Positions 2,245 to 15,120 of a stretch of 64,000 nt of DNA are shown here, one piece after another. Under the pieces are notes generated by a model. It saw only the letters and a list, made by a program, of their open reading frames with translations. It ran no database searches and had not been told where the DNA came from. A program made the translations under genes and the position numbers. Origin of the DNA: Opitutales bacterium (GTDB lineage Bacteria > Verrucomicrobiota > Verrucomicrobiia > Opitutales > JAJFLR01); NCBI GenBank assembly GCA_021772565.1, contig JAJFLR010000096.1:5266-69265 (forward strand). Reading direction: 5' to 3'. The stretch's first letter is position 1, and each line of letters begins with the position of its first letter.

Positions 2245-3177
2245 ATGGACATCTTAAAACAGTTAGGCATTATACAACTATCCTTAATTTTTGTTTATAA
2301 CATATTAATTGCCGGTCTGTATGAGCCCAAAGCTGGCGTTGATGGATCAAACGCAATTATCTCTAGTGATTCTAAAATTGTAAGTTGGGCAACAAATATT
2401 GAGCAGGTAAATTATGGCGACAATGTTGTTTCAATATTTAGAACTCCGGAAAAAGCTCTAGGCCAAGCGGAACTGCCAGGTGGTGATACTGGTAGTATTG
2501 TTTCACTGGGTAGCGGTGGTTCAATAGTTTTAACTTTCAACGATGGTATCGGCAACGAACCTGGACCGGATTTTGCAGTTTTTGAAAATGGATTTTCAGA
2601 TTTTTTTATCGAACTGGCTTTTGTAGAAGTTTCATCAGATGGAATAAACTTTTTTAGATTTCCCAACGACTCTTTGACTGAAAGATCTGTTGGCCCATTT
2701 GGATTAATTGAACCGAGTAATTTAAACGGTCTAGCCGGAAAATATCGAATTGGCTATGGAACACCTTTTGATTTGGATGACTTGGCAGATAACGTAAATC
2801 TCAATAAACATAATATCAGATTTGTTCGAATTATTGATATTATTGGGGATGGATTAACTAGTGATAGCCAGGGTGATCCAATATACGATCCCTATCCTAC
2901 TGCTGCATCTGCTGGTTTTGATCTCGATGCTGTCGGCGTCATCAATATTGGCGAAAATGAAAATAATCTGCAGCTGATAAATTTCGAGCGAATTGATAAC
3001 AATATCTATGTTAGCTGGAAAAGTAATTCATGGAAAAAATATGATTTGCTAGCTTCTGAAAATTTAAATAATTGGAATCCACTTTTCCAGATAACTGGCA
3101 AACGAGATGTAACTGATAAATTAGTTCCAATCAATCAAAGTGAGAAACTGTTTATCGTAATCCGGGAAGTGAATTAG
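2245..3177 (+). CDS. hypothetical exported protein, co-operonic with the uptake system
   Basis: 310 aa with an N-terminal hydrophobic helix. Conserved-looking core GPDFAVFENGFSDFFIELAFVEVSSDGINFFRFP. 12-nt and 3-nt gaps to the neighbouring genes. I cannot name a family. Confidence 0.6.
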   Translation: MDILKQLGIIQLSLIFVYNILIAGLYEPKAGVDGSNAIISSDSKIVSWATNIEQVNYGDNVVSIFRTPEKALGQAELPGGDTGSIVSLGSGGSIVLTFNDGIGNEPGPDFAVFENGFSDFFIELAFVEVSSDGINFFRFPNDSLTERSVGPFGLIEPSNLNGLAGKYRIGYGTPFDLDDLADNVNLNKHNIRFVRIIDIIGDGLTSDSQGDPIYDPYPTAASAGFDLDAVGVINIGENENNLQLINFERIDNNIYVSWKSNSWKKYDLLASENLNNWNPLFQITGKRDVTDKLVPINQSEKLFIVIREVN

Positions 3178-3180
3178 ATC

Positions 3181-4149
3181 ATGAAAAATTTTTACTTCCT
3201 AGCTCTATTTATAATAATTGTCATCGGTCTTGTTCTATATTCCATTCAAAAATCAGACGATATTAAGAAAAATGAAAATTTAGCATCGATTGATTCTAGC
3301 ACCTATCCTTTAAGCGTTAAGGACGTTCGTGGGTTAACAATCCATATTCCAGTTAGACCTAAACGAGTCATTTCATTTGCTCCAAGTATAACAGAAATAA
3401 TTTACGCAATGTCAGGAGAAAAAAATTTAATAGCTAACACAGAGTATTGTAACTATCCAGAAGATGCTAAACTAAAAGCTAAAGTAGGTGGTATAAGTAA
3501 TCCTGAAATTGAAAAATTGATATCGCTCAAACCTGATCTTGTTCTCAGCTCCACATTAACTCCATTAGATGCTGTCAAACAAATAGAATTATTAAAAATT
3601 CCAATCGTCGTTTTTAATCATTCTAGTCTCAATCAAATTTTTAATGACATTGATGTTATCTCAAAAATAATTGGCTATAGTGATTACGGGAAAGATCTGT
3701 TAAGTGACTTAAAAAATAGAAGGAAATCATTGAATGAAAAATTTTCTGATAATACTGATATAGATAAAATCAAAACACTCGTCTTATTTGGCACTAATGG
3801 ATTGTTTAGCTGTGGCAAGGGATCCTATATCAACGAAATAATTGATTTAGCCGGTGGTGTAAACGTTGCTCAGTCAATCAATTCTCCATGGCCACAAATC
3901 TCATTTGAAAGTATTTTAAATTGGAATCCTGATGTCATTTTTGTCACTTCTACTGAATCTCAAAATATTAGTGCTAGCGCTAATGTAATATCTACATGGA
4001 AGAATGATAAACGCTGGAAAAAGATTGATGCAGTTAAAAATGATCGGATAAAAATTATTGGCGATTCAATGTTAACTGTTCCCGGGCCACGATTGATTGA
4101 AGCTGCGCAAATAATGAATGATTTTTTGCATAGTAGTGATATGAATTAA
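3181..4149 (+). CDS. periplasmic substrate-binding protein, BtuF/FhuD/HmuT type (cobalamin, heme or Fe-siderophore class)
   Basis: 322 aa with an N-terminal anchor helix. RVISFAPSITEIIYAMSGEKNLIANTEYCNYP...LKPDLVL is typical of class III binding proteins. Confidence 0.85.
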   Translation: MKNFYFLALFIIIVIGLVLYSIQKSDDIKKNENLASIDSSTYPLSVKDVRGLTIHIPVRPKRVISFAPSITEIIYAMSGEKNLIANTEYCNYPEDAKLKAKVGGISNPEIEKLISLKPDLVLSSTLTPLDAVKQIELLKIPIVVFNHSSLNQIFNDIDVISKIIGYSDYGKDLLSDLKNRRKSLNEKFSDNTDIDKIKTLVLFGTNGLFSCGKGSYINEIIDLAGGVNVAQSINSPWPQISFESILNWNPDVIFVTSTESQNISASANVISTWKNDKRWKKIDAVKNDRIKIIGDSMLTVPGPRLIEAAQIMNDFLHSSDMN

Positions 4150-7942: not shown

Positions 7943-9415
7943 ATGTTTGAACAGACTTTTAAAAATATTGATGATACTCTCTGGAAAGACGCCGGGTGTA
8001 GTAGTGAATTAGATTACGTAGAACAGACCTCGTGGGTACTGTTTCTGAAATATTTAGACGACTTAGAAAAAGACAAAGCCACAGAAGCTGAACTGATCGG
8101 GAAAACCTACACCAATATTATTGCTCCCAAATTTCAATGGACAACGTGGGCAGCTCCTAAATTAGAAAATGGAAAAATTGATCACAACGCTTTAACCGGT
8201 GATGACCTTGTCGACTTTGTAAACGGTAAACTTTTCCCCTATTTGAAAAAATTCAAAACCGATGCGGAACATGCAAATACCATCGAATACAAAATTGGTG
8301 AGATATTCACTGAACTGAAAAACAGAATTCAAAGCGGTTATAACCTGCGTGAAGTGGTAAACAATATTGATGAACTTCGTTTCAGAACTCACAAGGAAAA
8401 ACACGAGATGAGCCATCTGTACGAAGCGAAAATTAAGAATATGGGCAATGCCGGGCGTAATGGTGGCGAATATTACACACCTCGACCGTTAATTAAAACC
8501 ATTGTAAAAGTGGTGGCTCCTAAAATTGGCAACAAAATTTATGACGGTGCAGCTGGTTCAGCAGGTTTCTTGTGTGAAGCTTTTGAGTATTTAAAGAATC
8601 CTTCGACAAGCTCTGGACAAGGCAAAGGATTATCTACTGCCGATTCTGAAAAGTTGCAGAAAAACACTTTCTACGGTAAAGAAAAAAAATCGTTAGCTTA
8701 TATTATTGGCATTATGAATATGATACTGCACGGCGTTGAAGCCCCAAATATCATCCATACCAATACACTTGCTGAAAACCTTGCAGACATACAGGAAAAA
8801 GACCGTTACGATATAATTTTGGCAAATCCTCCTTTTGGTGGAAAAGAACGTGCCGAAGTACAACAAAATTTTCCCATAAAAACAGGCGAAACCGCTTCTC
8901 TATTTTTACAGCATTTTATTAAAATATTAAAAGCTGGTGGAAAAGCAGGCGTAGTTATTAAAAATACTTTTTTAAGTAATACCGACAATGCCTCTATCGC
9001 TTTGCGCAAAGAATTACTAAGTAGCTGTAACTTACATACGGTTTTGGATTTACCGGGAGGAACGTTTACCGGCGCCGGAGTTAAAACGGTTGTGCTGTTT
9101 TTCAACAAAGGTGTTTCAACTAAAAATGTATGGTTTTATCAACTTAACCTGGACAGGAATTTGGGAAAAACTAACCCGCTCACCGAAAAAGATTTGGCTG
9201 AATTTGTGGCGTTGCAAAAAACAAAAGCTGAGAGTGAAAATTCATGGACAGTAAATATAGCTTCGATAGACTCAGTTACCTTTGATCTTTCTGCTAAAAA
9301 TCCGAATACGCCTGAAGAAGCACAGCTTCGTAAGCCGAAAGATATCTTGAAAGAAATGGCGAAGTTAGATAAAGAAAGTGCAGATATTTTAGCGACAATT
9401 AATGAGTTATTGTGA
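7943..9415 (+). CDS. hsdM: type I restriction-modification system, DNA methyltransferase subunit M
   Basis: 490 aa. HsdM-type N-terminal domain (LWKDAGCSSELDYVEQTSWVLFLKYLDD), AdoMet motif DGAAGSAGFL, catalytic motif NPPFGG. Confidence 0.95.
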   Translation: MFEQTFKNIDDTLWKDAGCSSELDYVEQTSWVLFLKYLDDLEKDKATEAELIGKTYTNIIAPKFQWTTWAAPKLENGKIDHNALTGDDLVDFVNGKLFPYLKKFKTDAEHANTIEYKIGEIFTELKNRIQSGYNLREVVNNIDELRFRTHKEKHEMSHLYEAKIKNMGNAGRNGGEYYTPRPLIKTIVKVVAPKIGNKIYDGAAGSAGFLCEAFEYLKNPSTSSGQGKGLSTADSEKLQKNTFYGKEKKSLAYIIGIMNMILHGVEAPNIIHTNTLAENLADIQEKDRYDIILANPPFGGKERAEVQQNFPIKTGETASLFLQHFIKILKAGGKAGVVIKNTFLSNTDNASIALRKELLSSCNLHTVLDLPGGTFTGAGVKTVVLFFNKGVSTKNVWFYQLNLDRNLGKTNPLTEKDLAEFVALQKTKAESENSWTVNIASIDSVTFDLSAKNPNTPEEAQLRKPKDILKEMAKLDKESADILATINELL

Positions 9416-9837
9416 GTGAGCAACAAGATATTAGATGGGTACAACGATTAGACAACTATAAGAAAGCGCTAAAAAGTTTACTCAGTGACATAGAATTGGC
9501 AACAGCAAGAGAACTTTCTGATATTGAAAAAAGAGGTTTAATTCAAGCATTTAAATACACCTATGAACTAGCCTGGAACACGATCAAGGATTTTTATCAA
9601 TCAATAGGAGATGCTGAAATACAAGGCAGTCGAGATGCTTTTAGAATGGCATTTAATAGAGGTCTGGTTTCTAATGATACTTTATTACAAGCCGTAAAAA
9701 GTCGTCAACTCACCAGTCATACCTACAATGAAGAGACGGCCGACAAAATCTATCATGATGTCGTCAATAGTTATTATGATGCGTTACAGGAGTTAGCAGA
9801 CAATTTACAATCACAAAAAGAAAAAAGAATTTCTTGA
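9412..9837 (+). CDS. HEPN-domain protein, HI0074-type nucleotidyltransferase substrate-binding family (putative RNase toxin)
   Basis: 141 aa. GLIQAFKYTYELAWNTIKDF and R-x4-H motif RQLTSHTY. The GTG start overlaps the hsdM stop (GTGA). Confidence 0.85.
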   Translation: MSEQQDIRWVQRLDNYKKALKSLLSDIELATARELSDIEKRGLIQAFKYTYELAWNTIKDFYQSIGDAEIQGSRDAFRMAFNRGLVSNDTLLQAVKSRQLTSHTYNEETADKIYHDVVNSYYDALQELADNLQSQKEKRIS

Positions 9838-9840
9838 CCG

Positions 9841-11376
9841 ATGTTTGGATTGGACCCTGATACTTTACGAAATATAAGAGGCGTTTTTACAAAACTACCT
9901 CAAATAGAAAAGGTGCTTTTATATGGCTCACGAGCCAAAGGAAATTACCGTAATGGATCAGATATAGATATCACGCTTTTTGGTAATGAGCTAAATCTTA
10001 AAAATAGTGTTTATCCTCTCATGGATGAATTGGATGAACTCTATCTACCGTATACATTCGATATCTCAATTTTTGAGTATATCGATAACGAAAAATTGAT
10101 TGAGCATATTAATAGAGTAGGTAAACTGTTTTATGAAAAAGAAAAGACACTGCCTGTTGGATGGGAAGTGAAAAAGTTAGGGGAAGTTTATGATGTACGA
10201 GACGGAACACACGACTCACCTAAATACATTAATAATGGGCATGCATTAATTACGTCTAAAAATTTAAAGAATGACATTTTAAATTATGACAAAATAAATT
10301 ATATCACTGAGGAAGATTATATGAAAATCAATAAGAGAAGTAAGGTTGATGTAGGTGATGTTTTATTCGCAATGATAGGCACCATTGGGAATCCAATTGT
10401 GATAAAAGTTGAACCAGATTTTGCAATAAAAAATGTGGCTCTTTTTAAAGTTCCAGAAACCCAAGACAGTTATTTTTTGAAATACTATCTTGATTCGGAA
10501 ATTGTTATTGATAAAATGACTAAAGATGCAAAAGGAGCAACACAAAAATTTGTTGGCTTAGGGTACCTAAGAAATTTCAACATCCCTCTTCCCCCACTCT
10601 CCGAGCAAAAACGTATAGTAGCCATTTTAGACAAAGCCTTTGCCGCCATAGCCAAAGCAAAAGCCAATGCCGAACAAAACCTGAAAAACGCCAAAGAACT
10701 TTTTCAATCAAAAATACAAAGCATTTTTGATAATGGAAAATTAAAAATTAAAAATGGTGAATGGGAAGAAAAGCCGTTATGTGTAGTTTGTGAGATAAAA
10801 CCACCAAAGAAAGAAGCAAGGAACAAGTTAAAAAAGTCTGATCTAGTTACTTTCTTACCAATGAAAGATTTGAAAGTATTAAATAAAGAAATCATTGGAG
10901 TTAAAGAAAAACAATTTAAAGATGTAGCTGGCAGCTACACATATTTTGCTAATAATGATGTGCTATTAGCAAAGATAACTCCTTGTTTTGAAAATGGTAA
11001 AATTGGAGTCGCTCGAAAACTGAAAAATGGTATTGGCTTTGGGTCAAGCGAATATGTTGTATTTAGAACTAATGATAGTATAGTTCCTGATTTTTTGTAT
11101 TTCTTTTTATCCAGAAAACAATTCAGAGATGAAGGATGTAAAAAAATGACTGGTGCTGTTGGTCATAAAAGAGTATCAATGGAATGGATTGAAAATTATC
11201 TTTTCTCATTCCCAAAATCTAAAGTGAAACAACAAACCATAGTCCAAAAACTCGACCTACTTTCAGCCAAAACCAAAAAACTAGAAGCAATCTATCAGCA
11301 AAAACTAGAAGATTTGGAAGAACTGAAAAAGAGTGTATTACAAAAAGCGTTTAACGGAGAATTGGCATTGAAGTGA
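9841..11376 (+). CDS. hsdS: fusion protein: minimal nucleotidyltransferase (MNT) domain + type I R-M specificity subunit S
   Basis: Residues 1-100 carry LLYGSRAKGNYRNGSDIDITLFG (GS...DxD NTase motif). From residue 103, LPVGWEVKKLGEV starts a two-TRD HsdS with conserved repeats LPPLSEQKRIVAILDKAF and QKLEDLEELKKSVLQKAF. There is no stop codon between the two parts. Confidence 0.85.
   Translation: MFGLDPDTLRNIRGVFTKLPQIEKVLLYGSRAKGNYRNGSDIDITLFGNELNLKNSVYPLMDELDELYLPYTFDISIFEYIDNEKLIEHINRVGKLFYEKEKTLPVGWEVKKLGEVYDVRDGTHDSPKYINNGHALITSKNLKNDILNYDKINYITEEDYMKINKRSKVDVGDVLFAMIGTIGNPIVIKVEPDFAIKNVALFKVPETQDSYFLKYYLDSEIVIDKMTKDAKGATQKFVGLGYLRNFNIPLPPLSEQKRIVAILDKAFAAIAKAKANAEQNLKNAKELFQSKIQSIFDNGKLKIKNGEWEEKPLCVVCEIKPPKKEARNKLKKSDLVTFLPMKDLKVLNKEIIGVKEKQFKDVAGSYTYFANNDVLLAKITPCFENGKIGVARKLKNGIGFGSSEYVVFRTNDSIVPDFLYFFLSRKQFRDEGCKKMTGAVGHKRVSMEWIENYLFSFPKSKVKQQTIVQKLDLLSAKTKKLEAIYQQKLEDLEELKKSVLQKAFNGELALK
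10732..10764. repeat. half copy (one arm) of the heptamer hairpin element inside hsdS
   Basis: aatggaaaattaaaaattaaaaatgg versus the H4 left arm aatggaaaattgaaagttgaaaatg (about 22/25). It is translated as NGKLKIKNG at the junction of the central conserved region and TRD2. Confidence 0.5.
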
Positions 11377-11466: not shown

Positions 11467-11790
11467 GTGAAAAACAAGCAAAGCAATAAGGCAAACAAAC
11501 TCGTTATATTCCAAAGCAAAAACATTCGCAGAATATGGCACGAAGAAGCGTGGTTTTATTCCGTTGTGGATATTATTGAAGTGCTTACCGACAGCCCTAC
11601 GCCAAGGCAATATTGGGGGAAAGTAAAAGACAGGGAATTTACAAAACTTCAGTTGTCCCCAATTTGGCTACAACTGAAATTGCCATCAAAAGACGGTAAA
11701 AAATACAACACCGATTGCGTCAATACCAAGAATGCTTTCCGCCTAATCCAATCCATCCCCTCCAAAAAAGCCGAATCACTGGTTAATTGA
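11467..11790 (+). CDS. Bro-N domain protein, apparently 3'-truncated
   Basis: GTG start preceded by aggagg. IRRIWHEEAWFYSVVDIIEVLTDSPTPRQYW...FRLIQSIPSKKAE looks like a Bro-N/antirepressor-type N-domain. The ORF ends in a TGA supplied by repeat H1. Confidence 0.6.
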   Translation: MKNKQSNKANKLVIFQSKNIRRIWHEEAWFYSVVDIIEVLTDSPTPRQYWGKVKDREFTKLQLSPIWLQLKLPSKDGKKYNTDCVNTKNAFRLIQSIPSKKAESLVN

Positions 11791-11885
11791 AAAATGAAAA
11801 TTGAAAGTTGAAAATGAGTAAATAAATGAAAATCAAACATTAAAATGACAAATAACTTTCAATTTTCAACTTTCAATTTTCAATT
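11785..11885. repeat. heptamer hairpin element H1
   Basis: Left arm gaaaattgaaagttgaaaat, loop of about 40 nt, right arm ctttcaattttcaactttcaattttcaatt (inverted). Confidence 0.8.
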
Positions 11886-12245
11886 ATGAAAGAGAATATA
11901 ATAATGAATAAATCGTATGCTTTTGCATTACGAATAACTAAATTGTATAAATATCTAATTTCAGAACAAAAAGAGCATGTACTTTCCAAGCAGGTTTTAA
12001 GAAGTGGAACCAGTATAGGTGCATTGGTAAAAGAAGCTGAACATGCCCAATCAAAAGCCGATTTTATCAACAAAATGAATATTGCACTAAAAGAAGCTAA
12101 CGAAACAGAATATTGGTTGATGCTACTAAAAGACAGTAAATATATTGATGAAAATAGTTTTAATTCCATTCATCCCGAAAGTGTTGAACTCATAAAACTA
12201 TTAGCCAGTATCGTTAAGTCATCAAAGGGAAAAATTGAAAATTGA
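11886..12245 (+). CDS. four-helix-bundle protein (23S rRNA intervening-sequence protein / Avd-like family)
   Basis: 119 aa (alternative start at 11904). ...SKQVLRSGTSIGALVKEAEHAQSKADFINKMNIALKEANETEYWLMLL matches the signature of this family. Its ATG abuts H1 and its stop lies inside H2. Confidence 0.8.
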   Translation: MKENIIMNKSYAFALRITKLYKYLISEQKEHVLSKQVLRSGTSIGALVKEAEHAQSKADFINKMNIALKEANETEYWLMLLKDSKYIDENSFNSIHPESVELIKLLASIVKSSKGKIEN

Positions 12246-12347
12246 AAATTGAAAGTTGAAAGTTGAAAATGAGTAAATAATTGGAAATTAAACATTAAAA
12301 TGACAAAGAACTTTCCATTATCCATTTTCAACTTTCAATTTTCAATT
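12231..12347. repeat. heptamer hairpin element H2
   Basis: aaaattgaaaattgaaaattgaaagttgaaagttgaaaatgag ... ccattttcaactttcaattttcaatt. The loop is similar to that of H1 (gagtaaata...aaacattaaaatgacaaa). Confidence 0.8.
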
Positions 12348-12391
12348 AAAGCAACGCGCCTAATGAACGAAGTCGAAACCAGATCAAGGTT
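12348..12391 (+). pseudogene. orphan duplicate of the hsdR leader and first ~11 codons
   Basis: aaagcaacgcgcctaATGAACGAAGTCGAAACCAGATCAAGGTTAATT (MNEVETRSRLI) versus the real start aaagcaaagcgtATGAATGAAGCAGAAACCAGAGCAGAACTAATA (MNEAETRAELI). Confidence 0.7.
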
Positions 12392-12471
12392 AATTGAAAG
12401 TTGAAAATTGAAAATCAGTAAACAATTAAAATGACAAATAACTTTCAATTTTCAATTTTCAATTTTCAATT
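12392..12471. repeat. heptamer hairpin element H3
   Basis: aattgaaagttgaaaattgaaaatcag ... aactttcaattttcaattttcaattttcaatt. Confidence 0.8.
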
Positions 12472-12483
12472 AAAGCAAAGCGT

Positions 12484-15120
12484 ATGAATGAAGCAGAAAC
12501 CAGAGCAGAACTAATAGACCCAAAGCTCAAACAATGTGGTTGGGGGGTGGTTGACGGTTCTAAAATTCTGCGTGAGCGCCATGTTTGTAAAATTACAGAG
12601 GGACGATTACAAGTCGGTGGTGGCAGAAAAAAACCACTGATTGCCGATTATATTCTGGTTTACAAAGGCGTTAAACTAGCCGTAGTTGAAGCTAAAAGCA
12701 ATGAGCTTGAAGTTGGCGAAGGGGTGGTGCAGGCAAAACGTTATGCTGAAAAACTTAATTTAGAAACCACATACTCTTCAAACGGAAAAGAGATTTACCA
12801 AATCTGTATGAAAACCGGGACAGAGGGTTTGGTTACCAATTTTCTTTCGCCGCAAGAACTTTGGGATAAAACCTACCCTGCGACAGGCTCAGGGCAGGTG
12901 CATATTAATGACTGGCGAGATAAATTTGCAGACATTCCTTTTGAAGATAAAAGCGGAACCTGGCAATTACGTTACTATCAGGAAATTGCCATAAAAAATA
13001 CACTCGAAGCAGTGGCACAAAATAAAGACAGAATTTTATTAACCCTCGCCACAGGAACAGGAAAAACGGCAATTGCTTTTCAAATAGCCTGGAAACTTTT
13101 TCAAAGCCGCTGGAACCTTTCGGTAATTGAAAATGGAAAATTGAAAGTTGAAAATGACGAGAACTATAATTTTCAATTTTCAACTTTCAATTCTCCATTT
13201 TCAAGAAGGCCACGAATATTGTTCCTTGCCGATCGCAATTTTTTGGCTGACCAGGCATTTAACGCATTTTCAGCATTTCCCGAAGATGCTTTGGTTCGTA
13301 TAAAACCAAAAGAGATTAAGAAGAAAGGAAAAGTGCCAACTAACGGCAGTATCTTTTTTACCATTTTTCAATCCTTTATGTCAGAATCAATTGATAATGG
13401 AGAGGGGACAATTGAAAATGGAAAATTGAAAATTGAGAATGGGAAATTGAGAATTGATAAGATTGAAGCTGAACCTTTAATGGTTGCAGAACAACGAGCT
13501 AATTATCCATTATCCATTGTCAATTCTCAATTATCCACCGTCAATTCTCAATTAAACTTCGGACAGTACCCAAAAGACTATTTTGATTTTATTATAATTG
13601 ACGAGTGCCACCGTGGCGGAGCGAATGATGAGGGAAACTGGAGAGGTATTTTAGAATATTTTTCACCAGCCGTTCAATTGGGTCTTACTGCGACACCCAA
13701 ACGTAACGACAATGTTGATACCTATAAATATTTTGGTGAACCTGTTTTTATCTATTCGCTCAAAGAAGGTATAAACGATGGATTCCTTACGCCATTCAAG
13801 GTAAAGCGAATTAAAACAACACTAGACGATTATTTATACACCAGTGATGACGATGTTTTTGAAGGCGAGATTGAAGAAGGGAAAATATACGAAGAACAGG
13901 ACTTTAATAAAAAAATTAAAATAAAAGAGCGAGAGGCAAAGCGAGTTCAGATTTATATGGATGAGGCTAATCAACACGAAAAAACTATTATTTTCTGTGC
14001 CACGCAAATGCACGCTGCCGCAGTTCGAGATTTAGTAAATCAGTACAAAAAAAATAACGACCCGAACTATTGTGTTCGTGTAACTGCAAACGATGGCGAA
14101 ATAGGCGAACAATTTTTACGGGAATTTCAAGATAATGAGAAAACAATTCCAACGGTATTGACCACATCCCAAAAACTATCAACAGGTGTTAATGCCCGAA
14201 ATATTCGCAACATTGTTTTAATGCGACCAATAAATTCAATGATAGAATTCAAACAGATTATTGGACGTGGTACGCGATTATTTGAAGGTAAAGAGTTTTT
14301 CACTATTTACGATTTTGTGGATGCGTATCATCATTTTCAAGATGATGCCTGGGATGGTGAAGCCCTGCCGTGTGAGGTTTGTGGCAAAATAGTATGCGAG
14401 TGTATTGGAACACCCTCCCCTGAACCAAGACCGTGTCAAAAGTGCGGTAAAATTCCTTGTGAGTGTTCAGTCAATCCACCGCCAGTTTGCCCTAAGTGCT
14501 TTCAGAGTCCCTGTGTTTGTGATCGTAAACAAATGATTAAGGTTAAACTGCGAGATGGCAAAGAGAGAGAAATACAACACATGATTGCGACATCCTTCTG
14601 GAGTGCTGACGGTAAACCAATATCTGCAGAAGAATTTTTAGGTAATCTATTTGGCGAACTTCCTAATTTCTTTAAAGATGAGGATGAATTAAGAACTTTA
14701 TGGAGCAGCCCCATAACACGTAAGACTTTGCTCGAAAAATTAGACGAAGCAGGTTTTGGAAAAGAGGAATTAAAGACTTTGCAAAAACTAATTGAGGCAG
14801 AGAAAAGCGATTTATTCGATGTATTGGAATATGTGTTTAACAGCGACGTAAAACCAATAACAAGAGAAGAACGAGTAACAAGAAGCAAAGCAACAATTTT
14901 TGCTCTGCTTAACGACAAGCAAAAAGAATTCATAGAATTCGTATTGAGTAAATATATTGAAACAGGTGTTGAGGAACTATCCCAGGAAAAATTACCCATC
15001 TTACTGACCAATAAATATCAATCATTGGAAGATGCCAAAGAAATATTGGGTGATGCAGCAAAAATCAAATCGCTGTTTATAGAATTTCAGCAACATTTGT
15101 ATCTACAAAAAACAGCGTAG
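12484..15120 (+). CDS. hsdR: type I restriction enzyme, endonuclease/translocase subunit R
   Basis: 878 aa. N-terminus MNEAETRAELIDPKLKQCGW. Helicase motifs LATGTGKT, ILFLADRN, IIIDECHRG, LGLTATP, QIIGRGTRL. Helical C-terminal domain. Contains two in-frame repeat insertions and a Cys-rich triplet. Confidence 0.9.
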   Translation: MNEAETRAELIDPKLKQCGWGVVDGSKILRERHVCKITEGRLQVGGGRKKPLIADYILVYKGVKLAVVEAKSNELEVGEGVVQAKRYAEKLNLETTYSSNGKEIYQICMKTGTEGLVTNFLSPQELWDKTYPATGSGQVHINDWRDKFADIPFEDKSGTWQLRYYQEIAIKNTLEAVAQNKDRILLTLATGTGKTAIAFQIAWKLFQSRWNLSVIENGKLKVENDENYNFQFSTFNSPFSRRPRILFLADRNFLADQAFNAFSAFPEDALVRIKPKEIKKKGKVPTNGSIFFTIFQSFMSESIDNGEGTIENGKLKIENGKLRIDKIEAEPLMVAEQRANYPLSIVNSQLSTVNSQLNFGQYPKDYFDFIIIDECHRGGANDEGNWRGILEYFSPAVQLGLTATPKRNDNVDTYKYFGEPVFIYSLKEGINDGFLTPFKVKRIKTTLDDYLYTSDDDVFEGEIEEGKIYEEQDFNKKIKIKEREAKRVQIYMDEANQHEKTIIFCATQMHAAAVRDLVNQYKKNNDPNYCVRVTANDGEIGEQFLREFQDNEKTIPTVLTTSQKLSTGVNARNIRNIVLMRPINSMIEFKQIIGRGTRLFEGKEFFTIYDFVDAYHHFQDDAWDGEALPCEVCGKIVCECIGTPSPEPRPCQKCGKIPCECSVNPPPVCPKCFQSPCVCDRKQMIKVKLRDGKEREIQHMIATSFWSADGKPISAEEFLGNLFGELPNFFKDEDELRTLWSSPITRKTLLEKLDEAGFGKEELKTLQKLIEAEKSDLFDVLEYVFNSDVKPITREERVTRSKATIFALLNDKQKEFIEFVLSKYIETGVEELSQEKLPILLTNKYQSLEDAKEILGDAAKIKSLFIEFQQHLYLQKTA
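13125..13204. repeat. heptamer hairpin element H4, in frame inside hsdR
   Basis: The arms match 28/29 as an inverted repeat around a 13-nt loop. Translated as IENGKLKVENDENYNFQFSTFNSPFS. Confidence 0.8.
13410..13553. repeat. heptamer hairpin element H5, in frame inside hsdR
   Basis: 144 nt. Arms aattgaaaatggaaaattgaaaattgagaat... and ...caattctcaattatccaccgtcaattctcaatt. Translated as IENGKLKIENGKLRID...LSIVNSQLSTVNSQL. Confidence 0.75.

Follow-up and report, generated by a model that had tools for sequence, protein, structure and literature searches.

Heptamer-repeat hairpins inside and beside a type I restriction gene and their association with a PF05635 gene family

Hairpins of the hsdR locus

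We analysed 64 kb of DNA from an Opitutales bacterium (contig JAJFLR010000096.1; this whole stretch, G+C ~35%, is called the window below), in which the hsdR gene of a type I restriction-modification (R-M) operon carries palindromic heptamer repeats that are read through in frame. A repeat search found five inverted repeats of TTGAAAR heptamers at 11785-13553 (H1 to H5, Table 1). H1, H2 and H3 lie upstream of hsdR, where an earlier reading made from the letters alone (the sequence-only reading) had placed them, and H4 and H5 lie within the gene. H1 and H2 bracket a four-helix-bundle gene of the PF05635/TIGR02436 family, whose inverted heptamer flanks score 54 compared to a shuffle maximum of 23. 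When one mismatch or none was allowed, TTGAAARTTGAAAR had 27 matches in the window versus 1.0 expected from shuffles, and 25 of the 27 fell within 11787-13439. A scan of the whole window for heptamer-periodic hairpins and tandem heptamer 21-mers found none outside 11.7-13.6 kb, in agreement with the earlier statement that the 64 kb hold no other copies. The repeat arm that had been noted in hsdS is real, although it is not a stray arm: this array is common to the orthologous hsdS genes of two related loci, L001 and L002 (L-numbers denote related loci or contigs that we compared, L090-L209 being metagenome contigs; P-numbers denote HsdR homologues).

The arms of H4 are 29 nt long and 97% complementary (28/29, as previously described; also given as 27/28), and the spacer between them is 20 nt, not 13 nt as first thought. 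H4 is translated as IENGKLKVENDENYNFQFSTFNSPFS, and the translation of H5 (144 nt) opens IENGKLKIENGKLRIDKIEAEPLMVAEQRANYPLSIVNSQLSTVNSQ; both are in frame and neither breaks hsdR, which is a single open 878-aa frame. The two elements are open in the hsdR frame alone, the other five being stopped, while H1, H2 and H3 are stopped in all six. A perfect TTGAAAA array brings a TGA into each frame once per 21 nt. In the H4 left array, whose units are short and imperfect (TTGAAAA TGGAAAA TTGAAAG TTGAAAA), the single unit where TGA would hit the hsdR frame has TGG, with CC at the matching position of the right arm, and in the H5 left arm TGG stands at two such units; a right arm, (TTTTCAA)n, is stop-free in every frame. 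The earlier view that the hsdR copies sit in a phase and variant that avoid stops is thereby upheld, as is the claim that TGA triplets in the left arms of H1 and H2 (11788-11790 and 12243-12245) end the Bro-N and four-helix-bundle open reading frames (ORFs). An independent assembly (L003, Logan SRR15505518) encodes an identical 878-aa HsdR, indicating that the hairpins in hsdR are not an assembly artefact.

A specific loop sequence is common to H1, H2 and H3 (ATTAAAATGACAAAKAACTTTC), and a scan of species-representative genomes for it gave 0 matches. Global alignments were uninformative as to whether these loops are a collapsed PF05635 ORF, and what is left is a resemblance at the junctions (TTGAAAATGAGTA equals the gene start of L004, and AAATGA..ATAA followed by an arm is like the gene ends of L001, L002 and L006). 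Flanking H3 is an imperfect ~40-nt copy of the 5' end of hsdR, unlike a target-site duplication of the typical sort. The RhuM gene that precedes hsdR in L005 opens with hsdR-like codons (VNEAET, L005 about 1960-2010), and in L002 (about 2950-3000) only the ..AAAGCGAAGCG.. leader is repeated, the RhuM there opening MNKQPN. Read together, these sequences suggest that cassettes may enter at the hsdR 5' end via a recombination that duplicates this end. Since the Bro-N ORF ends at the TGA inside H1 and matches only positions 3-102 of PDC-S13, a PADLOC candidate-defence profile with 286 positions, it looks truncated by the arrival of the hairpin or cassette.

Further upstream, 9412-11376 holds a HEPN/MNT-like pair between hsdM and hsdS, with the MNT domain at the N-terminus of HsdS in a single 511-aa ORF. 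The fusion scores 31.8 bits against NCBIfam MntA_antitoxin, under the 60-bit cut-off.

Table 1. Positions of the hairpins and of the neighbouring genes in the window
Feature	Position	Strand	Evidence and remarks
hsdM, type I methyltransferase	7943..9415	+	Pfam N6_Mtase 4e-61, HsdM_N
HEPN-type nucleotidyltransferase substrate-binding protein, between hsdM and hsdS	9412..9837	+	Pfam NTase_sub_bind 3.6e-34
MNT nucleotidyltransferase domain fused in frame to hsdS	9841..11376	+	Pfam Polbeta (residues 11-102) and Methylase_S
Heptamer array within hsdS (FDNGKLKIKNGEWEE)	10727..10768	+	Like arrays in hsdS of L001 (position 649) and L002 (position 1877)
Bro-N fragment ORF, 107 aa, apparently truncated	11467..11790	+	Pfam Bro-N; stop TGA in H1 left arm
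H1, intergenic heptamer-arm hairpin, no ORF	11785..11886	.	Arms 30 nt, 90% complementary, 43 nt apart; stops in six frames
PF05635/TIGR02436 four-helix-bundle gene ('23S rRNA-intervening sequence protein')	11886..12245	+	Pfam 2.6e-28; TIGR02436 4e-30
H2, hairpin	12233..12349	.	Arms 32-36 nt, 83-91% complementary; left arm gives the four-helix-bundle gene its TGA stop
Imperfect duplicate of hsdR leader and first codons (mini-ORF MNEVETRSRLIES and stop, 12363-12404), running into H3	12349..12404	+	Read from sequence; ~30/38 aligned bases equal 12470-12510
H3, intergenic hairpin, ending 10 nt ahead of the hsdR start codon	12390..12473	.	Arms 26 nt, 96% complementary
hsdR, EcoAI/FtnUII family (type IB), intact, 878 aa	12484..15120	+	NCBIfam equivalog; Pfam ResIII, EcoEI_R_C
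H4, in-frame hairpin at HsdR site 1 (aa 214-240), motif I to motif Ia	13125..13204	+	Arms 13127-13155 and 13176-13204
H5 left arm, TTGAnAA-type, with degenerate outer units (SIDNGEGTIENGKLKIENGKLRID)	13389..13460	+	Sequence, repeat search, orthologous loci
H5 core (KIEAEPLMVAEQRAN), ancestral 'medium' linker of site 2, not repeat-derived	13461..13502	+	Homologous ..AAEPxxxY.. core in most orthologues and in the 47%-identical subfamily
H5 right arm (YPLSIVNSQLSTVNSQL)	13503..13553	+	51 nt, 75% complementary to 13410-13460, 42 nt apart

Two sites in HsdR and their occupants

HsdR scores 763 bits against the NCBIfam EcoAI/FtnUII equivalog (cut-off 550), and its closest named relative, from Candidatus Halobeggiatoa sp. 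HSG11, is 79% identical. It keeps the residues that are invariant across its own subfamily and a 47%-identical one, which it does by definition as the alignment columns included it. Compared to L002 and L001, whose HsdR proteins have inserts at both sites, the core has a ratio of nonsynonymous to synonymous substitution rates (dN/dS) of 0.10-0.11 at dS 0.83, whereas in the insert regions the proportions of nonsynonymous (pN) and synonymous (pS) differences are 0.23-0.26 and 0.31-0.40, respectively (pN/pS about 0.65-0.75). Thus the insert-bearing HsdR is under purifying selection and the insert peptides drift almost freely. The sequence-only reading had allowed either that the elements were tolerated in a still-functional HsdR or that they had silently inactivated it; a dN/dS of about 0.1 argues for the former.

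One 7-nt unit more or less would shift the hsdR frame, 7 not being divisible by three, and could switch restriction. In Haemophilus and Neisseria, type I and type III R-M genes are established cases of phase variation through repeats. The heptamer copy number is also known to vary between Coxiella strains (PMC4990558). We nevertheless regard phase variation as very improbable here: the arrays are short (3-5 units) and imperfect, the independent assembly is identical in sequence, and 120 of the 120 closest HsdR orthologues are full-length ORFs, with no frameshifted variant seen.

The two inserts lie in loops, as the sequence-only reading had supposed. We modelled HsdR residues 150-640 from a 65-sequence alignment that included the 47%-identical subfamily (a full-length model from 18 near-identical sequences, with a predicted local distance difference test score, pLDDT, of 41, was unusable and was replaced). 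The mean pLDDT was 71.7, with 80-92 in the core. Long segments of low confidence occur only at model residues 65-88 and 157-197, which correspond to HsdR residues 214-237, where pLDDT is below 50, and 306-346. The first connects the motif-I helix to the motif-Ia strand and the second connects the IFFTIF strand to the helix preceding the motif-II strand. In the best PDB match of the model (3H1T, a solved Vibrio vulnificus HsdR fragment; E 1e-26) both connections are short, with about four residues at site 1.

At site 1 most of the 120 closest orthologues have six residues, L-NRDGx, and the 47%-identical subfamily is short, a site-1 insert being present in 0 of its 120 members. Among the 120 closest orthologues, however, about 20 (from Gammaproteobacteria and Bacteroidota) have the H4 site filled by a peptide that heptamers encode (for example LSAMQNAKLTIENDEGNNSQFSTVNYQL, LTAMENGELKSDNDDNSQFSTFNYQS and LSAMVNDKLSMVNEGNDNNSPLTIHNYIP), with common junctions, LSAM.../...YQL-RRPR, and these are scattered among empty-site relatives. 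The hosts include Candidatus Halobeggiatoa, a Methylococcales sponge symbiont and Crocinitomicaceae; later loci added Draconibacterium and Flavobacteriaceae. The inserted segments are therefore extra with respect to most of the family, as had been proposed, but they are not lineage-specific: unrelated taxa carry homologous site-1 peptides, which in part fulfils what the sequence-only reading had itself named as its refutation. The insert at site 1 did not arise anew in this lineage, since alleles of unrelated phyla have related inserts there. When the conserved columns were used for a neighbour-joining tree, filled alleles fell in at least 10 separate places among empty ones. Pairs of alleles that are 92-94% identical differ by the presence or absence of the insert, with clean flanks and no drop of identity beside the site. 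This scattered distribution fits repeated gain and loss, or exchange between the alleles of this highly mobile R-M system. Two empty alleles (L210 and L009) read ..AAT CGT GAT GGA AAA AGA AGA.., which contains the heptamer-like GATGGAAAA; other empty alleles are without such a seed (GACGGACAG in L007, GATGGTTCA in L022).

The RNA fold of H4 has an energy of -33.5 kcal/mol (z = -3.4 versus synonymous-codon shuffles), whereas the orthologous insert hairpins have decayed to 75-88% complementarity, and at both sites their folds are near the expectation from the peptide sequence (z between -0.2 and -3.1). A stem under selection would not be expected to decay so far. This speaks against the idea that the hairpins are kept for work at the RNA level, in which the A-U-rich stems of H1 to H5 would be RNase III substrates or pause or stability elements, uncoupling HsdR from HsdM and HsdS and lowering its level; a lowered HsdR would suit a system that must methylate before it restricts. 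RNase III does cut the heptamer stem of the Coxiella intervening sequence (IVS) (PMC4990558). Moreover, the 29-bp stem of H4 is more stable than its synonymous recodings and near perfect despite a dS of 0.83 to the nearest insert-bearing allele, pS in the inserts is below that of the core, a right arm lies just upstream of the hsdR start in several loci, and hairpins stand at cistron junctions in Bacteroidota operons. Most orthologues, however, are without the insert; Rfam matched only three tRNAs in the window and no RNA family at the hairpins, and no intrinsic-terminator-like site was found there. We consider a retained RNA-level function unlikely.

H4 shares 86% identity with H1-H3 and 79-83% with the nearest site-1 inserts of orthologues (L001, L002, L004, L006 and L008), against a background hsdR identity of 73-84%. 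These values do not discriminate, and we dropped the proposal that H4 was copied from H1. Because the likeness of H4 to H1-H3 is not clearly above its likeness to the orthologous inserts, it also does not settle why the H4 stem is near perfect.

H4 also holds a near-consensus σ70-like promoter, TTGAAA-18 nt-TATAAT, at 13141-13170 on the plus strand (11/12) and a promoter-like match at 13190-13163 on the minus strand (10/12). Heptamer arrays mimic the -35/-10 spacing, and 21 promoter-like sites occur in 2.4 kb compared to 7.3 expected.

Site 2 (residues 303-357) has two old states, each found in both subfamilies: a short one, SGTDKDGNPEPY, and a medium one of about 31-36 residues with the core ..(L/A)(M/I)AAEPxxxY..(Y/F)N. 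The middle of H5 (EAEPLMVAEQRANY) is this medium core, and the heptamer arms just flank it as IDNGEGTIENGKLKIENGKLRID and YPLSIVNSQLSTVNSQL. The H5 core is thus ancestral and only the arms are repeat-derived, so that H5, described earlier as one inserted element, is not one but two arms around an ancient linker that the distant subfamily also has. The Halobeggiatoa allele carries further nested hairpins at site 2, and in P0012 and P0125, one from each of the 47%-identical subfamilies, a whole GIY-YIG nuclease domain sits there in frame. Since this domain occupies the same place in both subfamilies, the site-2 loop appears to be a recurrent landing place for selfish inserts. A GIY-YIG Pfam domain is also present in P0133 (917 aa), its position in the protein not having been located.

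A third variable spot of HsdR (aa 132-140, window about 12874-12905) has a unique 7-aa extra, ATGSGQV. At this third HsdR site (around aa 125-150) L071 has a full in-frame heptamer hairpin (L071 4274-4346, KLMDNGQWKIDNENGFGNNYPLSTDD; compare SIDNGKLTIE in P0051). A second small repeat (ATGSGQV in HsdR, STSSGQG in HsdM) was discarded, as ACAGGCTCAGGGCAGG is present only once.

PF05635 cassettes and gene-less hairpins elsewhere

From 517 relatives of the four-helix-bundle gene in species-representative genomes we took the best 80, of which 77 were testable, and searched 110 nt upstream and 110 nt downstream of each for an inverted repeat that exceeded all 50 shuffles, with arms of at least 18 nt and a lag-7 periodicity of at least 0.6. 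Inverted heptamer arrays flanked 58 of the 77 PF05635 genes and 3 of 311 control ORFs from the same loci. The best 80 relatives came from Gammaproteobacteria, Bacteroidota, Leptospirae, Nitrospira, Chlorobiota, Desulfobacterales, Acidobacteria, Planctomycetes and others, and PF05635 copies on viral contigs were flanked by heptamer arms likewise (3/3). The heptamer varies by locus: TTGACAA is the commonest, followed by TTGAAAA, TTGAAAG, TTGAGAG, TTGATAA and TGGAGAA, with TGGTTAG also found, and in L081 the arms are built on GGTGAAT. At every cassette the two arms match each other and they change together between loci, a covariation that speaks for a stem. The family is confined to this defence locus only within the 64 kb; the wider claim of the sequence-only reading, that the element is specific to the locus, does not hold, as it brackets PF05635 genes in dozens of genomes of many phyla, be it in operons for R-M systems or ABC transporters or on viral contigs, and occurs in at least 120 metagenome stretches.

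In orthologous loci a plus-oriented heptamer array stands just before the PF05635 start and a minus-oriented array just after the stop. In L001, L002 and L006 the left arm, the gene and the right arm are followed by hsdR or the next gene 40-53 nt past the stop; L004 has an additional hairpin after the cassette, and hsdR starts 145 nt on. The PF05635 ORF lies plainly inside the loop in L001 and L006, and the window cassette (11785-12349) has a complete small hairpin at each gene end. H3, H4 and H5 have no PF05635 ORF in the loop, and similar ORF-less hairpins adjoin cassettes in many loci.

Of the 80 loci, about 24 belong to type I R-M systems. In four Bacteroidota loci (L032, L041, L051 and L070) the cassette sits in an ABC-transporter operon (TolC-like, HlyD, two ATPases, cassette, two permeases) with heptamer hairpins at most cistron junctions. 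The arms overlap the gene ends there, with the result that ORFs end ...ELRIEN-stop and begin M..NSQFSILNSQF.., so the supply of stop codons by arms, first seen at H1 and H2, extends beyond this locus. Two or three PF05635 cassettes stand in tandem in L012, L013, L027 and L042, most with their own heptamer variant (TGGTTAG-type and TTGAAAG-type arms in L027). In L024, a Candidatus Ruthturnera metagenome-assembled genome, the cassette (3501-3854) lies about 800 nt upstream of a 16S rRNA gene, adjoining the rrn operon and not inside it.

Rfam found no rRNA at the window locus, and 0 of 20 sampled PF05635 genes lie inside a 23S gene, which makes the cassettes free-standing relatives of the IVS design. 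The PF05635/TIGR02436 protein is related to Avd, a protein of diversity-generating retroelements (DGRs), and to our knowledge PF05635 has no described catalytic activity.

Hairpins with TTGAAAR arms were found in at least 120 metagenome stretches. They mostly lie just upstream of ORFs, and among the matches listed similar arms enclose loops of extreme diversity. In contigs of 57-68% G+C (L090-L209) AT-rich TTGAAAATTGAAAA arms enclose G+C-rich loops, and a few loop sequences, such as GAACTAGACCTATCGGCTCGCTAAT, recur in several contigs. Besides the third HsdR site, in-frame heptamer hairpins occur in a Nitrospira hsdM-like ORF (L064 1740-1800; SGELKMKKKDTDHSQFSTFNS) and, as identified by eye through conserved motifs, in a carA-like ORF (L196 1162-1218) and in probable C-terminal sorting domains of the type IX secretion system (T9SS) (L156 and L181), where the arms flank native sequence.

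Such loops bear on the alternative that the hsdR hairpins were born locally and not inserted as a mobile element: a heptamer-like seed in the DNA of a loop would be expanded by replication slippage, and intramolecular template switching of the quasi-palindrome type would copy it as an inverted arm and keep both arms alike. The seed-like heptamer of two empty site-1 alleles, the H5 arms that flank an ancestral core in place of a loop of their own, the arms around native sequence in the probable T9SS sorting domains, the diverse metagenome loops between like arms, the joint change of both arms between loci and the variable heptamer number among Coxiella strains (PMC4990558) all agree with it. 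However, the other empty alleles have no seed, the loop common to H1, H2 and H3 points to an entire unit having been copied, the presence of these AT-rich arms at a genomic G+C of 57-68% argues for import, and the 47%-identical subfamily, with a similar loop, never has a site-1 insert. Local birth of the hsdR hairpins seems improbable to us.

Origin of the hsdR copies and comparison with known systems

The reading that we favour, and hold to be probable, is that the arms of H4 and H5 are translated, largely neutral ORF-less stems of an IVS-type cassette, which are tolerated in permissive loops of a working HsdR. H1 to H5 would be copies of a widespread hairpin family with arms of tandem heptamers (consensus T(T/G)GAnAr), whose full form brackets a PF05635/TIGR02436 gene as in an S23p-type IVS, with the ORF in the loop of a heptamer stem. 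In the window a cassette (H1, gene and H2) stands between hsdS and hsdR, H3 would be an ORF-less copy, and H4 and the H5 arms would be ORF-less stems within hsdR, translated as floppy peptides of the ..IENGKLK.. or ..FQFSTFNS.. type while HsdR stays functional. Their persistence would rest on the permissiveness of the two surface connections in helicase domain 1 that they occupy, on a length and phase that keep the reading frame, and on TGG in place of TGA where the hsdR frame would stop, the right arm being stop-free. The anatomy, the association with the family, the position in loops, the purifying selection on HsdR and the almost neutral evolution of the insert peptides are observed; descent of the ORF-less copies from the cassette, and their slight effect on the protein, we infer.

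Several observations weigh against this reading. No transposase, target-site duplication or other sign of transposition was found: none of the window ORFs examined or the related loci looked at turned up a transposase, and no direct repeat flanks H4 or H5. The near-perfect stem of H4, at a dS of 0.83 and beside decayed orthologous stems, is not predicted by pure neutrality, and pS in the inserts (0.31-0.40) is lower than in the core (0.50; small numbers), which hints at constraint at the nucleotide level. Selection on the RNA stem (e.g. on an RNase III site that lowers hsdR expression), concerted correction of the arms by template switching, or a recent renewal from a neighbouring copy may account for the H4 stem. 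The filled site-1 alleles seem to replace or re-frame NRDGx and do not simply interrupt it, and the working state of the insert-bearing HsdR is itself deduced from patterns of substitution. Finally, contrary to expectation, a PF05635 gene lay near the TTGAAAR hairpin in 0 of the 120 metagenome stretches among the matches listed; hairpins without an ORF thus greatly outnumber cassettes, and it could be the cassette that descends from them.

In the library searched, no paper connected PF05635 cassettes with heptamer stems, type I R-M operons and copies in frame in HsdR; the papers found on PF05635, S23p or TIGR02436 together with type I restriction or heptamers dealt only with the Coxiella IVS and with DGR/Avd. 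The locus takes the phenomenon of selfish palindromes translated within proteins far outside Rickettsia. Scattered reports of 'heptamer repeats' in Beggiatoaceae, Cyanobacteria and Bacteroidetes also gain a common reading from it. For annotation, peptides of the IENGKLK or NSQLSTVNSQL type and ORFs that end ...IEN-stop can be taken as footprints of a heptamer repeat.

Ogata and colleagues are said to have described in 2000 the Rickettsia palindromic elements (RPEs), short palindromic repeats that lie in frame in protein genes and are read through where an extra peptide is tolerated. The comparison with RPEs made in the sequence-only reading is apt as a description of behaviour, as H4 and H5 are in frame and read through in loops of a conserved protein. 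The hairpins differ from RPEs in their taxa, in having arms of tandem heptamers in place of a fixed 100-150-bp consensus and in their association with a protein-coding cassette; judged from the taxon and the heptamer-built arms, they are unlikely to belong to the RPE family.

TAACTGA (STRR) heptamer repeats are known from Beggiatoaceae, Cyanobacteria and Bacteroidetes, mostly just upstream of start codons (MacGregor 2015, PMC4679880). In the forward direction they give stops in all frames, whereas the reverse is open and encodes LSVINYQLS-type peptides in variable surface loops; they are described as direct repeats, with one inverted case in 170 sets (PMC4679880). The 7-mers are related to ours (TAACTGA, then TAATTGA, then AAATTGA) and have the same unusual spread of taxa. 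Our unit, in contrast, is an inverted pair that forms a hairpin, and no link to PF05635 or the IVS was drawn for TAACTGA repeats (PMC4679880).

Repetitive extragenic palindromic sequences (REPs) and their hairpin-forming doublets (REPINs) with REP-associated tyrosine transposases (RAYTs), and bacterial MITEs (miniature transposable elements with inverted repeats), resemble the present system in that one gene is flanked by inverted short repeats, many copies are gene-less, and the hairpin-forming units often lie at cistron junctions. Unlike in REPIN/RAYT systems, the flanked gene is PF05635/TIGR02436 and not a Y1 (IS200-like) RAYT, and the arms are periodic heptamers; terminal inverted repeats are present as in MITEs, but a target-site duplication was not seen. 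One could imagine that the PF05635/TIGR02436 (Avd-like) protein and the heptamer hairpin form a two-part mobile system like RAYTs and REPINs, with the 23S IVS as one landing site and ORF-less hairpins spreading to cistron junctions and to permissive protein loops (HsdR, HsdM, CarA). We regard this as a minor and unlikely possibility; if it were true, the recurrent HsdR hot spots would be the trace of repeated insertions, possibly guided by sequence.

The nearest described architecture is the S23p-type 23S rRNA IVS (Coxiella, Leptospira, Haemophilus and others), whose origin and mobility have been an open question since about 1990. The Coxiella IVS contains an S23p (PF05635) ORF and a 28-bp stem of terminal inverted repeats within which RNase III cuts, and it has tandem GACAGAT heptamers, variable in number between strains, before the ORF start (PMC4990558). 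Both designs, here most plainly in L001 and L006, have a PF05635 ORF in the loop of a long inverted-repeat stem, and both have tandem heptamers in the stem (GACAGAT has the TGACA core of TTGACAA, the commonest unit here), and both look selfish and are tolerated where they are inserted. The present copies differ in lying outside rRNA, and thus not in helix 25 or helix 45, and in a type I R-M operon, H3, H4 and H5 being without an ORF; two copies are translated as part of a protein gene, and there excision by RNase III would ruin the mRNA and not rescue it. The locus presents the design of an ORF with a heptamer stem outside rRNA, with counterparts in many phyla, gene-less derivatives and copies in frame in a well-understood enzyme, and it gives a comparative handle on the IVS question through pairs of alleles at 92-94% identity that are filled or empty, the joint change of the two arms between loci and insertion hot spots that recur.

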